Source of the DNA: Thermoplasmata archaeon | Lineage (GTDB): Archaea > Thermoplasmatota > Thermoplasmata > UBA10834 | DNA length: 64,000 nt | Direction: 5' to 3' | Assembly (NCBI GenBank): GCA_041559015.1 | Contig: JBFFED010000002.1 | Location: 1,027-65,026 of the forward strand | Shown here: positions 29,044-36,812 of the stretch, piece by piece | How the letters are laid out: every line of letters begins with the position of its first letter | Position numbering within the stretch: the stretch's first letter is position 1 | Notes under the pieces: generated by a model | The model's database searches: none | What the model saw: only the letters and a program-made list of their open reading frames with translations | Told to the model about the DNA's origin: nothing | Translations under genes and position numbers: made by a program

Positions 29044-29117
29044 TGGACCCGGGCGGACCTTGAACTCGCTCGAGCCCATCAAACATGGAATCAGTTCAAT
29101 CAGAAAGAAAACACACC
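29044..29117 (-). repeat. Degenerate tRNA-Ala 3'-end copy + conserved cassette end (att-like copy 1)
   Basis: tggacccgggcggacc-ttgaactcgctcgagcc, then 19 nt, then tcaatcagaaagaaaacacacc. Confidence 0.7.
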
Positions 29118-30385: not shown

Positions 30386-30459
30386 GTGGACCGGGCGAGC
30401 ATTGAACTCGCTCGAGCCAGACAATCATAAAACCGTCTCAATTAAAAAGAAAATGCACC
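30386..30459 (-). repeat. tRNA-Ala 3'-end copy + conserved cassette end (att-like copy 2)
   Basis: 30386-30411 matches tRNA 36740-36765 at 24/26 nt; followed by the 17-mer extension, 19 nt, and tcaattaaaaagaaaatgcacc. Confidence 0.85.
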
Positions 30460-30869: not shown

Positions 30870-31730
30870 TCAGATGTAGAGTCCGCCGTTGATGTCAACT
30901 ACCTGCCCGGTGATATAGCCCGCCTCTGGAGACACTAGATACGTAACCGCAGATGCGATTTCTTCAGGTCTCCCCAGTCTGCCCATGGGTATCTGTGCCA
31001 GAATCTTCTGGATGATATTTGGCGGAACAGACTTCAACATATCGGTCCCGATGAATCCTGGGGCCACGGCATTTACGGTGACGCCTTTGTCCGCGAATTC
31101 CTTGGCAAGTGTCTGAGTCAATCCTATCATTCCTGCCTTTGAGGCTGCGTAGTTAGCCTGGCCACGATTGCCCATCCGACCAATCACAGAAGATATGTTC
31201 ACTATCCGGCCGTATTGCCGCTCAAGCATTCCATCAATGACAGCTTTGGTGCAATTGAAAGTTCCCGTGAGGTTGACGGAGATTACGTCGTCCCACATCT
31301 CTGAAGTCATCTTCACGAACGATTTGTCTTTGACTATTCCGGCGTTGTTTACCAGGATATCGATCTTGCCGAACTCAGCCACCGCCTTGTCCCGCATCTT
31401 GTTCACTTCGTCCATCTTTCCGACGTTGGCCTGGCATAAGATAGCACGTCTCCCCATCGACTCTATCTTTTCTCTGACTTCCTTTCCTTGTTCGACAGTA
31501 TCCATGATGTCAATCATGTTGATCAGTTCGTCAAGATCATCCATTCTATCTGTCTTATTTATGAAGTCGATGACGTCCGCAGCCTGGTCCTTGCGGCTCT
31601 GATAGTTCACGGCGACATCTGCTCCTTCTCCTGCGAGCTTGATGGCAATCGCCTGACCGATGCCTCTCGAGCCGCCTGTGACCAGCGCAACCTTTCCGTC
31701 TAGAGCCCCTGTTCTCTTAATGCCTTTCAC
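30870..31730 (-). CDS. phaB: Acetoacetyl-CoA reductase (SDR) with internal insertion
   Basis: TGGSRGIG, NNAG, GQANYAASKAG; in operon with phaC. Confidence 0.75.
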   Translation of the reverse strand: MKGIKRTGALDGKVALVTGGSRGIGQAIAIKLAGEGADVAVNYQSRKDQAADVIDFINKTDRMDDLDELINMIDIMDTVEQGKEVREKIESMGRRAILCQANVGKMDEVNKMRDKAVAEFGKIDILVNNAGIVKDKSFVKMTSEMWDDVISVNLTGTFNCTKAVIDGMLERQYGRIVNISSVIGRMGNRGQANYAASKAGMIGLTQTLAKEFADKGVTVNAVAPGFIGTDMLKSVPPNIIQKILAQIPMGRLGRPEEIASAVTYLVSPEAGYITGQVVDINGGLYI

Positions 31731-31749
31731 CCCTTGTCCTCGCGTGAGC

Positions 31750-32535
31750 CTAGACCACCAGTCCACCATCGACCAGCAATACGCACCCGTTCACGTACTT
31801 CGCCTCGTCCGACGCCAGATATAGGTTGGCATAGGCGACATCTATCGGATCGCCTAGCATGTTCAGAGGAGTCTTCTCCGCCATTCGGTCAAGGATCTTC
31901 TGAGGCACTGATGCAGTCATTGGGGTCTTTATGAATCCGGGAGCGATTGCATTGACTCTGATCCCCTTCCTTCCCAGTTCCTTGGACAGAGTCTTGGTCA
32001 TGCCAATCAAGCCGGCTTTGGCGGCCGAATAGTTGACCTGGCCGACATTGCCATAGACGCCTGAAACGGAGGACACATTGACAATCGAACCGCTTCCTCT
32101 CTGTAGCATGTGATCGGCGACTGCTTGAATGCAGTTGAACGCGCCCGTGAGGTCAACACGAATCACTTCGTCCCATTGCTCTTCTGTCATCTTCTGCAGC
32201 AGAGCGTCCCTGATTATGCCTGCGTTGTTGATCAGGATGTCAATCCTCCCAAATCTCTGGAGCGTCGCATCGACTGCTTTCCTCACTTCCTCTCTCTTGG
32301 TTATGTCTGCAGTAGCGCACAAGGTGTTCTTGATTTCCGTCTCCTTGGCGAATCCCATGTCACGATAGACCTTCTCTACATCTCCGGTGAAGATATCGAA
32401 GATGGCGACCTTCGCCCCCTCATTCAAGAAGAGTTTCGCTGTTTCCTTTCCGATTCCACTTCCGCCTCCAGTAATTACTGCAACCTTGTTCTCTAATCTC
32501 ATCTCGGGTTCCTCCTTCCCTCTGCTCTCATTCAT
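31750..32535 (-). CDS. Second PhaB/FabG-like SDR reductase
   Basis: TGGGSGIG, NNAG, GQVNYSAAKAG. Confidence 0.8.
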   Translation of the reverse strand: MNESRGKEEPEMRLENKVAVITGGGSGIGKETAKLFLNEGAKVAIFDIFTGDVEKVYRDMGFAKETEIKNTLCATADITKREEVRKAVDATLQRFGRIDILINNAGIIRDALLQKMTEEQWDEVIRVDLTGAFNCIQAVADHMLQRGSGSIVNVSSVSGVYGNVGQVNYSAAKAGLIGMTKTLSKELGRKGIRVNAIAPGFIKTPMTASVPQKILDRMAEKTPLNMLGDPIDVAYANLYLASDEAKYVNGCVLLVDGGLVV

Positions 32536-32551: not shown

Positions 32552-33637
32552 TCAGCTGCTCTGTTCGCCAGATCGCGCCCTCAGCCAGGAAGAGATCTTC
32601 GGGCAGACGTCCCTTTGTGATTTGCCGCCGACGAACATTCCAATATGTCCCGTCGGAAAGACCACGACTTCTTTATCTGTGCTCGCAACTGCATCGTTGA
32701 GCGGCTTGCTGGCAGCGATGGGAACTAGGTGGTCGTACTCCCCCATCACGTTCAGCAGAGGCATTGTGATGTTCTTGAGGTCGACCCTCTTCCCGTCCAG
32801 CATCATTTCGTTCTTTATCAGCAGGTTCTTCTGATAGCAGTCCTTGATGAACTGTCGATACATTTCCCCTGCCTGGTTAGGACTGTCAAAGATCCATTTT
32901 TCCATCCGCAGGAAGTTCTTCACGGCTTCCTCATTCTTGCGCCCGCTGTCTTCGTCATCCCCGTTGCTCTCAATCTTCTCAAAGAATATGACGTACTTGT
33001 CTATCAAGACTCTGAAGGGGTCGGTTAGTAGGAAGCCCGTGTTGAGTAGATTCCCAGGTACCATTCCGTATGCATCCACTATCCTGTCGGCATCTAGGCT
33101 CTTTGCCCAGACGTGGAGGAGCCCTTCATCGGTGTCGAAATCGACGGGTGTCACCATTGTTGCGAGGTTCTGGATCTTTTCCGGATGCAGCGATGAATAC
33201 ATCACCGAGAAGGTACCACCCTGGCAAACGCCGAACAGGGACACTTTCTCAGCTCCGGACAACTCCCTTATCTTCTCGACGGCGTTGTCGATATACCCGT
33301 TCACATAGTCATCGATGGTGAGATACCTGTCTATTCCTGACGGATATCCCCAGTCAATGATGTATACATCGAGCCCATCATCGAGCAGTTTCTTGACGAC
33401 ACTCTTGTCGGGCTGGAGATCAAGTATGTAGTGTCTGTTGACAAGAGCATAGACGATGAGCACGGGTACTGGATAAGGCTTCTTCACTACTGGGATGTAG
33501 TGAAGCAGCCTCATATCATCCTGTGTGTAGACGACCTCTGAAGGGGTCATCCCGACCGAGATCTCTGGTGCCTTGAGGAATAGGTCGAGCATCCTCATCG
33601 CCTTCCTGTTGTTCTCTATCAGTTCCGCGAATTCCAT
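32552..33637 (-). CDS. phaC: Class III PHA synthase catalytic subunit
   Basis: YALVNRHYILDLQPDKS, lipase-like box GVCQGG, EYDHLVP, PTGHIG, EKWIFDSP. Confidence 0.93.
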   Translation of the reverse strand: MEFAELIENNRKAMRMLDLFLKAPEISVGMTPSEVVYTQDDMRLLHYIPVVKKPYPVPVLIVYALVNRHYILDLQPDKSVVKKLLDDGLDVYIIDWGYPSGIDRYLTIDDYVNGYIDNAVEKIRELSGAEKVSLFGVCQGGTFSVMYSSLHPEKIQNLATMVTPVDFDTDEGLLHVWAKSLDADRIVDAYGMVPGNLLNTGFLLTDPFRVLIDKYVIFFEKIESNGDDEDSGRKNEEAVKNFLRMEKWIFDSPNQAGEMYRQFIKDCYQKNLLIKNEMMLDGKRVDLKNITMPLLNVMGEYDHLVPIAASKPLNDAVASTDKEVVVFPTGHIGMFVGGKSQRDVCPKISSWLRARSGEQSS

Positions 33638-33675
33638 AGTTGTCACTATCCGAAACGACACTCAGGCAGCGTCCG

Positions 33676-34224
33676 TCACTTCCTCGTTGCGCTCTTTCCC
33701 TGATCTCGAACCAACTCTTTCACTTGCTTCTTGAGCAGGTAGACCTCTTTGCTGAGGTCGTCCATCTCCGTCCGCGTGGGAAGATTGGCGGGTCTGAGGA
33801 AATTCTCCTCGATTAGGACCCTCGAGGACTTCTGAAAATCCATCGAATTGGATGTCAGTCTTGCCAGATCCGAGGCAAAGAAGCTAGATTTCAGAAACTT
33901 CTTGAATGTCTCACTGTATGTCTCCATCCAGAGGTCGTAGTAGCCCTTGTAGGAGGAAGGCGAGACGCCCTCTGCGATCCGCTTCTCAACCTCCTCCTGG
34001 GTTTTCTGGCTGGCTTCCATGAAGGCACTCTGGTAGTTCGCGATGGACTGCGCCCATGCAGCATGCATGTTGATTGTGGCCTCGAAGTTCTTCCTCAGCC
34101 TATCCACGCCTTCGCGAGATGGGCCCATGATGGGCATGTCTATGATTCTACCGTAGGTAGCCTCATAGGCCTTCAGCCAGTGCTCGAAGAAGTCATGGGA
34201 TGCTTGTAGATCCGAGCTCTCCAT
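33676..34224 (-). CDS. phaE: Class III PHA synthase subunit PhaE
   Basis: Directly upstream of phaC; YDLWMETY; C-terminal LPTRTEMDDLSKEVYLLKKQV coiled coil. Confidence 0.8.
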   Translation of the reverse strand: MESSDLQASHDFFEHWLKAYEATYGRIIDMPIMGPSREGVDRLRKNFEATINMHAAWAQSIANYQSAFMEASQKTQEEVEKRIAEGVSPSSYKGYYDLWMETYSETFKKFLKSSFFASDLARLTSNSMDFQKSSRVLIEENFLRPANLPTRTEMDDLSKEVYLLKKQVKELVRDQGKSATRK

Positions 34225-34226
34225 GA

Positions 34227-35369
34227 TCAAGTCGCCCTCGTCTGACCGAACTTCGCGTCCATCCACATCTTGGTTGCATTCGCATAGGTGTCCGCCTGAG
34301 CCCGTGCTGCCTTCTTGAGTGGGTCTATCAGTATCTTCATGGGCTCTACCGCGGGCATGAGTTCAAAGAAGTCTTTGTACGCCTTCTCATATGTATCGAA
34401 CCACTGCCCGTAGAACTCCCTGTAGGATTCCGCCTCGGTCGCGTTGGTGAGTAGATCCTTCATCTTCTCTGTAGTCTTCTCCAACACCGTCAACCAGGAA
34501 TTGTACAGCTCCGTACTGTTCTGCATTCCCTGGAGCATTTCATCGACCATCTCCTTCGACGGCTTCGTGATGTCGGTGGAGAACATCTTGGCGTATGTCT
34601 CTTTGTATGTATTCATCCACTGGTCGTAGAACTCTTTGTACTTCTCCGGACCTGCGTCGCCCTTTGACAGCTCGAAGAGCTTCTCTGAGAGCTCGAAAGT
34701 CAGCTTCTCCCAGGGGGTGTACATGTCCTTGTAGGACTCTCTCCACATCTTCGCCGCTTCTGCGAGGTTCGTGAGATACATGTTCGGCATGCCCGTGTAC
34801 GCCTCGAAGACCTCCTTCGTGTTCTTCGATGTCATCATGCCGAGAAACTCATCGAACATCTTCTCATAGGACTTGATCCACATTTCGTAGGAGTTCTTGT
34901 AGTCCTCAGGACTCACGCCACCCAAGAGCATCTTCTGAGTCCTCCTGGAGTTCTCCTCGAGTTCGGCGCTCCACGCCTTCATCAAATCCGTTGACTCCTG
35001 TGCACTCACGACGAGCATGTCCAGTGTCCTTCTGTCCGTCATTGCCTTCAGCATAGTTGCCTTCTGCATAGGATAGAGTCTGTCAAGTGTGTCCTGTTGT
35101 GTCTTGACCAGTTCCTCGTAGAACTCTCGGTATTTCTCTGGCGATGTCTCCCCTGAGAGCTGCACAGCCTTGTCAAAGAGCTTGCCTGTAGACTCGATCC
35201 AGGGGTTGTACAGGTCTGTGTAGGATTCCTGCCAGACTTTCGACATTGCGCTGTAGCTTTCGGTCCACATCTTGAAGGGGTTCTTCCGCTCCTCGGTCGA
35301 TCCCGTTCGGTTCGCCTTGCTCGTTTCTCCCTTCCTGCTCTTAACTGTCTCTGCTTTGTTCTTAGTCAT
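34227..35369 (-). CDS. PhaE-like helical repeat protein
   Basis: Four copies of (P/A)E-x-Y-x-(E/N)-(F/S)-Y-x2-(W/L)-x3-(Y/Q); first gene of the operon. Confidence 0.7.
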   Translation of the reverse strand: MTKNKAETVKSRKGETSKANRTGSTEERKNPFKMWTESYSAMSKVWQESYTDLYNPWIESTGKLFDKAVQLSGETSPEKYREFYEELVKTQQDTLDRLYPMQKATMLKAMTDRRTLDMLVVSAQESTDLMKAWSAELEENSRRTQKMLLGGVSPEDYKNSYEMWIKSYEKMFDEFLGMMTSKNTKEVFEAYTGMPNMYLTNLAEAAKMWRESYKDMYTPWEKLTFELSEKLFELSKGDAGPEKYKEFYDQWMNTYKETYAKMFSTDITKPSKEMVDEMLQGMQNSTELYNSWLTVLEKTTEKMKDLLTNATEAESYREFYGQWFDTYEKAYKDFFELMPAVEPMKILIDPLKKAARAQADTYANATKMWMDAKFGQTRAT

Positions 35370-35791
35370 ACTGGTTCGCCTCCACAAAACTCACAGACGA
35401 TTATTCAAACCGGGCGAATCCATGTAGCAAAAAAAGCTACGAAGTTCCTAACGGCGATCTAAAACGCATCCTGTTGAATTTCCGCGATTTCCAATTCAAG
35501 CTATAGTGTTGCCGCTTATAGTCTTTGGCTTCGTACCGAGCAGTCGTCGCAGAAATACGCTGGCAAGGTTTCCCCGGAACATGGGCAATCTCAGACCCAG
35601 GCAGCGAGATGTACTGATATGAGCTTGTGCTCCGGTTCAATGGCACGCCCTCAGAGATTCCATTGAGGCACAATCACTCGTCAAGCACTAGAATAGTCTG
35701 TCTCTGTCCATTTCGTCTTCTCACGATGAGATGGGTGTGAATCCGGATGCATAGCCGACTCTGGATAGGAAATCCCTGGTGAGCGGGCACG

Positions 35792-36589
35792 TCAGCGAAA
35801 CTTCTCAACGAGGGAAAGAAGTGCCGTCGCGAATTCTCTGGGCTGGTCAACATAGCCGACGTGCCCGCTCGGAAACATGTGCAAATCGGTTCTCAGTTGT
35901 GTCGCGAGCCATTTGGATGCGCAGAACAAGTGCATAGCCGTCTCTTCACCTGCCGCTATGAGGATGGGGACCTTGGATCCCCTAAGCGCTTCTGCGTTGG
36001 GCTTATAGGAGATGATCACCGGCATCTCCACAGAGAAAATGACATCCCCATTGTCGAAAGCGCGTCGCATCGTGCTCGGGTCCAGACCATTGATTGCCTC
36101 GTCCTCTTTCATCTCTGTGAACACTCGCAGTGCGTTGCGGGGGCCTCCCTTCGCTACCTTGGCTTTCCAGAAGTCTGCCAGGTCATGAGCTTGATAGAGA
36201 AGCGGCATAAGCGGCGGTTCGTGCGCGATTGCCCCCCGAACTGACAGCGGGTGGCGAACGATGAGCTCGAGCAAGATCATCGCTCCGAAACTGTTGCCGA
36301 AGACGATGGCTGGACTTAGGCGCAAAGTGGACAGCAATTCCGCTGCATCATCCGCCTGCTCCGTAACCGAAGTCGACGTCCAGCCTTCTGGGCGAGGGCT
36401 TCGAGAATTTGCGCGGCGATCATACGTAATGACCGTGAACTGCTCGGCGAGGAGCTCCGCGAGCGGCTCGAACCATCCTGCGTCTCCCGTGAGGCCCATG
36501 ATCAGTAGAAGGGGCGGTCCGAAACCTCGTATCTCGTAGTAGATGTGCGTCCCATTGACCTCGGCGAGCCCATGCTTCATCGTCGTCAT
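35792..36589 (-). CDS. Alpha/beta hydrolase
   Basis: GNSFG nucleophile elbow, YDRRANSRS, PSGHVGY. Confidence 0.85.
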   Translation of the reverse strand: MTTMKHGLAEVNGTHIYYEIRGFGPPLLLIMGLTGDAGWFEPLAELLAEQFTVITYDRRANSRSPRPEGWTSTSVTEQADDAAELLSTLRLSPAIVFGNSFGAMILLELIVRHPLSVRGAIAHEPPLMPLLYQAHDLADFWKAKVAKGGPRNALRVFTEMKEDEAINGLDPSTMRRAFDNGDVIFSVEMPVIISYKPNAEALRGSKVPILIAAGEETAMHLFCASKWLATQLRTDLHMFPSGHVGYVDQPREFATALLSLVEKFR

Positions 36590-36737
36590 CCCTCTGGCTG
36601 ATTCGCTTCCGTTCACTTAATGCATTCTCCAGTGTGTTGAGCCGTGGTTGAACCGGAGACACTGGCTGTCTCTCAATCCGGCGATTGTCACACGTCCGAA
36701 TCTCTTCTAACGCCCCTATGGCTTCTTCCGAGACTAA

Positions 36738-36812
36738 TGGTGGACCGGGCGAGATTTGAACTCGCGACCTCTCGCATGCCAAGCGAGCGATCTGCCGCTG
36801 ATCTACCGGCCC
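36738..36812 (-). tRNA. tRNA-Ala(GGC), CCA encoded
   Basis: Cloverleaf GGGCCGG/CCGGTCC with G3-U70; anticodon arm CTCGC-TTGGCAT-GCGAG; T arm GCGAG-TTCAAAT-CTCGC. Confidence 0.97.

Follow-up and report, generated by a model that had tools for sequence, protein, structure and literature searches.

What does the first gene of the pha operon in this Thermoplasmata archaeon encode, and how does its product relate to the PhaE encoded next to it? PHA storage is considered to influence how the methane-oxidizing Methanoperedens archaea function, and it is in these organisms that most relatives of the gene, here called gene X, are found. The window analyzed is a stretch of 64,000 nucleotides, in which X directly precedes genes for a short PhaE and for PhaC (Table 1). 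A sequence-only reading had described X as a tandemly amplified N-terminal domain of PhaE that might act as a granule coat or a synthase scaffold. Our results suggest that X is an architectural variant of PhaE within an already described Pfam family rather than a new system, and that a phasin-like role is probable.

Table 1. Features of the pha locus, in the direction of transcription (positions are those of the window)
Feature	Position	Strand	Description
tRNA-Ala(GGC)	36738..36812	-	3' end (36740-36765) repeated at 30386-30411, 24/26 nt
Alpha/beta-fold hydrolase	35792..36616	-	Upstream of X, within the island; position kept in close relatives
Gene X	34227..35369	-	380-aa PhaE paralogue without tail; first gene of the pha operon
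Half unit X0	35148..35288	-	aa 28-74; W.ESY..LY.PW helix; corresponds to second helix of X2 (hhalign 98.9%)
Unit X1	34917..35147	-	aa 75-151; motif SPEKYREFYEELVKTQ; versus X3 99.7%, score 128; versus PhaE unit 1 97.7%
Unit X2	34659..34916	-	aa 152-237; motif SPEDYKNSYEMWIKSY; versus X4 99.1%; 48-nt D1 copy at 34854-34901
Unit X3	34440..34658	-	aa 238-310; motif GPEKYKEFYDQWMNTY; best PF09712 match (profile 214-254); D1 copy at 34593-34640
Unit X4	34230..34439	-	aa 311-380; motif AESYREFYGQWFDTY; D1 reference copy at 34377-34424
Short PhaE	33676..34224	-	182 aa from ATG 34224; two units and conserved C-terminal tail; PF09712 86.6 bits, profile 142-310
PhaE C-terminal tail	33679..33849	-	aa 126-182, including LPTRTEMDDLSKEVYLLKKQVKEL; present in short and long PhaE, missing in X
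PhaC, class III PHA synthase	32552..33661	-	TIGR01836 456 bits versus cutoff 365
Two SDR reductases, FabG/acetoacetyl-CoA reductase type	30870..32535	-	Overlap at 31750-31769

Translation of X most likely starts at the ATG at 35369, since it is preceded by GGAGG and aligned homologs begin with M-x-K-K. M1 is nearly invariant in an alignment of 65 sequences, and an alternative TTG at 35387 would give a protein of 386 aa. The predicted product (44.7 kDa, pI 5.25, GRAVY -0.85) contains no Cys or His and is rich in Lys, Glu, Tyr, Trp, Phe, and Met. Only 2 nt separate the TGA stop codon of X from the ATG of phaE, and as the spacing is equal in relatives, the two genes are probably translationally coupled. 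On the 5' side, a perfect palindrome, GTAGC-TTTTTTT-GCTAC, is present at 35425-35445 on the minus strand, at a distance of about 60 nt from the ATG of X; possible functions are those of an operator or of a terminator for the upstream hydrolase gene. The two SDR reductases encoded downstream of phaC would be the suppliers of PHA monomer. The adh_short match of the second one (30870-31769, minus strand) is interrupted by an acidic insertion, some 35 residues long, at roughly aa 55-90. A similarly sized SDR (286 aa) from the Methanoperedens operon (L001, 10768-11628) shows this match broken into two parts as well.

The repetitive nature of X, claimed from the sequence as four related units, was borne out. 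The four motifs are present at residues 82, 159, 246, and 319 of the TTG-numbered ORF, and the corresponding PhaE motif is at residue 102 of the neighboring ORF. Twenty-residue BLOSUM62 windows between X units score 50 to 68, which is above chance, and unit subalignments taken from 65 homologs match one another with hhalign probabilities of 97.7 to 99.7%. The units are, however, larger than the motifs by which they had been recognized. Each motif opens a helix-loop-helix unit of about 75 to 85 residues, of which it makes up the first helix, and the four full units are preceded by an N-terminal half unit. This half unit was also detected as an internal match of residues 44-100 with 207-265, and as a DNA repeat (D2). 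Another DNA repeat of 48 nt (D1) was identified by a DNA repeat finder in five copies, three in X and two in phaE, with 60 to 73% nucleotide identity. As the best pairings are those of X1 with X3 and of X2 with X4, the array corresponds to a duplicated two-unit module. Conservation reaches 90% or more at about 60 positions of the X family, among them the aromatic residues in each of the motifs. The dN/dS values of X against orthologs are 0.14 to 0.28, similar to those of PhaE (0.17 to 0.29), with 0.09 to 0.19 for PhaC; this purifying selection indicates that X is a maintained gene.

The similarity to the adjacent PhaE, first noticed from a motif, was confirmed at the level of family profiles. 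Residues 238-336 of X aligned with residues 3-112 of short PhaE (99%, E = 1e-17), and a second alignment matched residues 81-176 of X with 10-111 of PhaE (98.3%). The N-terminal domain of PhaE therefore itself holds two such units, and these and the X units match one another at 96 to 99.7% hhalign probability. The absence of the PhaE C-terminal part from X, likewise noticed from the sequence, also held. A profile of PhaE residues 126-182 matched none of the X units (hhalign probability below 7%), and a tail HMM gave E values of 0.7 to 7.8 on X-family representatives versus 1e-8 to 1e-15 on most long PhaEs. The place where long PhaE has its tail is taken in X by the last helix of X4. The tail of short PhaE is also similar to part of NCBIfam TIGR01837, "PHA granule-associated protein," namely to the C-terminal end of that model (E = 8e-4). 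The similarity extends over residues 154-186 as numbered in the 196-aa ORF that starts with GTG, or about 140-172 of the 182-aa protein, and suggests a motif common to PhaE and one phasin family.

The origin of the four-unit array became apparent when the canonical long PhaE was included. Residues 29-344 of X are collinear with residues 13-312 of a 377-aa long PhaE (99.4%), and short PhaE covers residues 202-369 of the same protein. This collinearity identifies X as a long PhaE without the tail, and short PhaE as one without the first two units. Bacterial long PhaEs (about 360 to 390 aa; PF09712/TIGR01834) resemble X in their helix-loop-helix units with PE.Y.EFY..W..TY and in their location in a phaC operon, but they carry a C-terminal tail (about 313-377). 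X lacks the tail, has no hit to TIGR01834, forms a clade of its own, and coexists with a separate tailed PhaE. The short archaeal-type PhaEs of about 180 aa, such as that of the adjacent gene and that of Haloferax mediterranei, have two units in common with X (99%) and are encoded in the same operon, but they consist of two units and a tail, whereas X consists of four and a half units.

Family models and phylogeny gave a consistent picture. X exceeds the gathering score of Pfam PF09712 (PHA_synth_III_E; 29.5 versus 25.7 bits, over three stretches), and all 65 aligned X-family members match this model (E <= 0.01). With TIGR01834 (class III PhaE subunit; cutoff of 154.95 bits), X gave no hit at E <= 1, and the adjacent short PhaE, at 69.9 bits, is likewise below the cutoff. 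In a maximum-likelihood tree, the X clade is split from the long PhaEs by a fully supported branch of 1.2 substitutions. As judged from these comparisons, X is a long-PhaE paralogue that has lost the tail of about 60 residues, and the four-unit array is an older feature of PhaE. The earlier idea of a tandemly amplified PhaE N-terminal domain is thus correct with respect to PhaE homology but not with respect to a fresh amplification, as X is collinear with the whole long-PhaE array. Formation of X by amplification of the domain of the neighboring short PhaE was rejected on the basis of this collinearity together with the long, fully supported branch. The sequence-only reading had also not recognized X from described pha clusters. 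X does pass the threshold of a described family, PF09712, and a condition named beforehand as refuting the sequence-only reading thus applies in part.

The family is small. When 1.84 billion representative proteins were scanned in full for matches to a profile of X, only 317 hits at E <= 1e-3 were obtained, and these fall into two tiers. The first consists of full-length proteins of about 340 to 490 aa without the tail, and these constitute the X family. The second consists of proteins of about 355 to 450 aa (E values of 1e-38 to 1e-18), most with the tail; those that are named derive from Planctomycetota and Myxococcota MAGs or are annotated as "class III PhaE subunit," and they are canonical long PhaEs. 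A word-indexed search identified 259 homologs from Thermoplasmata archaeon (73% identity) or Candidatus Methanoperedens (42 to 50%), and almost all are annotated as "hypothetical." Nearly all of the X family belongs to Candidatus Methanoperedens, in which the gene is multicopy and often in tandem, with up to four copies in a single genome. Among GTDB species genomes, 79 X loci were found: 4 in Thermoplasmata, about 70 in Methanoperedenaceae or Methanobacteriota MAGs, and a few in bins labeled Nitrospirota or Thaumarchaeota. Four loci in MAGs with the latter two labels (L060-L062 and L064) have the order X-phaE-phaC with Methanoperedens-like sequences, and may be misbinned contigs or Borg-type elements. 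The same architecture appears in the gene table of the Black Borg, along with an orphan copy.

The gene order X-phaE-phaC is present in 54 of 71 informative loci, that is, the 79 loci minus 8 that are cut by a contig end just 3' of X. X and phaE without phaC were found at two loci. An integrase gene follows phaE in one, and the other is truncated by a contig end about 100 nt past phaE. The former (L041, 6017-7850; Ca. Methanoperedens nitroreducens ANME-2d, contig 5.5) has a tyrosine-integrase gene in the place where phaC is expected, which suggests that this operon was disrupted or mobilized. X is an orphan at 15 loci, and an SDR reductase gene directly follows it in 5 of these. Tandem arrangements with two or three X genes, X-X(-X)-phaE-phaC, occur at 14 loci, and the copy proximal to phaE is always directly upstream of it. 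In the class of the window, class III PhaC is encoded by 39 of 301 genomes and X by 5 of 301, all from one family. All 5 X-bearing genomes also have PhaC, and 34 of the 39 PhaC-bearing genomes do not have X.

Thermoplasmata X sequences form one fully supported clade with a long stem, nested among those of Methanoperedens in the maximum-likelihood tree. Copies of the 3' end of tRNA-Ala bracket a 6.3-kb pha island that includes the upstream hydrolase gene, and the GC content inside it is 51 to 53%, compared to 56 to 62% on the tRNA side and beyond. A further degenerate copy of the tRNA 3' end is present at 29044-29069. No integrase was seen among the ORFs of the island. Taken together, the tRNA 3'-end copies, the low GC content, and the nested position of the Thermoplasmata clade make the pha cluster look like a laterally acquired island, whose source is most simply read as the Methanoperedens gene pool.

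The physical properties of X are those of an amphipathic helical protein. Its AF2 model contains only helices and is of low confidence (pLDDT of 62.8, pTM of 0.40). In the model of short PhaE (pLDDT of 84.6), a unit of short helix, loop, and long helix as in X is followed by a separate tail helix. The mean hydrophobic moment of X is 0.316, compared to 0.198 +/- 0.017 in shuffled sequence, indicating strongly amphipathic helices. Searches with domain models identified no enzymatic, catalytic, or DNA-binding domain in X. Neither Foldseek searches of the PDB with the X and PhaE models nor a PDB sequence-profile search gave a match below E = 0.1, and the structural assignment of X ends at predicted helical hairpins. 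Weak matches to Phasin_2 (PF09361) were found in 23 of the 65 X-family members (E <= 0.01; best, 7e-7), and the X of the window gave no hit at E <= 1 to this model or to the phasin models PF05597 and PhaP_Bmeg (PF09602). In other Thermoplasmata pha loci (L019, L020, L023-L025, and L027), the gene directly 5' of phaE encodes a helical protein of 270 to 410 aa. These proteins are only faintly similar to X (E values of 1e-4 to 1e-9) and show subthreshold hits to Phasin_2, PhaP_Bmeg, apolipophorin-III, or PF09712. As a group, they appear to be candidate phasins of archaea that are more widespread and very divergent.

With these results, we lean toward a function in which X coats or scaffolds PHA granules in a phasin-like manner. 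Short PhaE with its tail, encoded 2 nt downstream, would be the partner of PhaC, and X, having lost the tail, would be freed for a structural role. As a PHA granule grows, its hydrophobic surface would be coated by the amphipathic units of X, four and a half in number, and X may in addition hold the PhaEC synthase at the granule via the units common to X and PhaE. That X binds granules, coats them, or contacts PhaE or PhaC is our inference. Pointing in this direction are the loss in X of a tail common to PhaEs while a complete PhaE adjoins, the amphipathic helical repeats without an enzymatic or DNA-binding domain, and the weak Phasin_2 hits in a third of the family. The position of X is that of phaP in H. 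mediterranei, directly upstream of phaE-phaC, and in other Thermoplasmata this slot is filled by the unrelated helical proteins with faint phasin or apolipophorin likeness. Tandem and dispersed paralogues are also what would be expected of an abundant coat protein, and not of an enzyme subunit with 1:1 stoichiometry. The linkage of X to phaE-phaC and the purifying selection on X are further points in favor.

Comparison with known phasins adds points on both sides. PhaP of H. mediterranei (154 aa), annotated as a PHA granule structural protein, resembles X in gene position and in being acidic and helical, but it is 2.5 times smaller, and Haloferax pairs PhaP with the regulator PhaR, which is absent at the X locus. 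X and this PhaP gave an hhalign probability of 0.2% and an hmmsearch E value of 0.012 with a score of 2 bits. Homology of X to haloarchaeal PhaP or PhaR was considered and rejected, as none was found by profile comparison. Bacterial Phasin_2 phasins are, like the X family, amphipathic and helical, with multiple paralogues per genome, but X is much larger and clearly derived from PhaE. Phasins are typically small, with masses of about 10 to 25 kDa, and X at 44.7 kDa falls outside this range. This size, 2 to 4 times that of typical phasins, counts against a coat role, as do the absence of a Phasin_2 hit in the X of the window, the lack of similarity to PhaP, and the low-confidence AF2 model with no significant PDB neighbor.

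In the main rival reading, which we consider rather unlikely although it deserves attention, X serves the synthase as a third subunit or as its scaffold. X would pair with short PhaE via the common units (about residues 200-312 of long PhaE), and the two would rebuild an assembly resembling long PhaE that activates or organizes PhaC. X and short PhaE do jointly span the whole long PhaE with an overlap of two units, their dN/dS values are alike, and the X copy nearest phaE never departs from its position directly upstream. The 2-nt gap conserved in relatives implies coupled, possibly equimolar, translation of X and PhaE, which suits the subunit of a complex as well as a coat protein. On the other hand, haloarchaea and Rhizobium, which do not have X, use short PhaE alone as the normal partner of PhaC; X is also missing in most PhaC-bearing genomes of its own class, and its tandem and orphan paralogues are ill suited to a fixed stoichiometry. 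The coat and synthase-component functions are not mutually exclusive, and both can hold.

It is considerably less probable that X regulates PHA granules or serves as an adaptor for their partitioning, like PhaM or PhaF, acting on granule number, localization, or synthase activation rather than as a bulk coat. X does exceed classical phasins in size and modularity, and Methanoperedens has separate small PF05597 phasins that may already fill the coat role there, but X has neither a DNA-binding domain nor a basic tail, as its acidic pI reflects, and neither a matching family nor a regulator-like partner conserved beside X was found. That X is a decaying or functionless PhaE duplicate, or its repeats a compositional artifact, we regard as hardly credible, as the weak PF09712 match and the low AF2 confidence are outweighed by a reading frame intact in about 100 loci across two phyla, dN/dS values of 0.14 to 0.39, the conserved positions given above, and unit-to-unit matches of 97 to 99.7%.

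A search of the literature found no paper that discusses X as a separate component, and in the literature searched, we did not find the domain functions of PhaE described, including which part binds PhaC or PHA. In Methanoperedens, phaC and phaE are reported to be among the most highly expressed genes (PMC11337218), and papers on this genus name "phaC and phaE" by Pfam or KEGG label. A pangenome study of Methanoperedens found that "PhaE" is not a single gene cluster (PMC8561730), which would follow if two PF09712 proteins go under one name. We also considered whether the highly expressed Methanoperedens "phasin" of the Borg paper belongs to the X family; this is not supported, as the Phasin entries of the supplement are PF05597 proteins of 105 to 108 aa.

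Going a step further, X might found a class of archaeal phasins derived from PhaE, in which case the repeated N-terminal units of PhaE would be a module for binding the PHA surface, and the tail with the last two units a PhaC-activating module. We put this forward tentatively, at somewhat less than an even chance. If true, it would explain the long and short forms of PhaE. Methanoperedens, its Borg elements, and one lineage of the Thermoplasmata would have set the coat module free as a gene of its own, open to amplification, which travels with the synthase on a mobile island. Telling X apart from true PhaE would also offer a natural dissection of PhaE. X is a candidate phasin for anaerobic archaea beyond the haloarchaea, and with respect to biotechnology, a large multivalent granule-binding protein could be a tag or a tool for controlling granule size. 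The main value of the finding lies in annotating and understanding PHA storage in anaerobic methanotrophic archaea, where distinguishing a tail-less, multicopy paralogue from true PhaE should lead to cleaner annotation and cleaner expression and proteome readouts.
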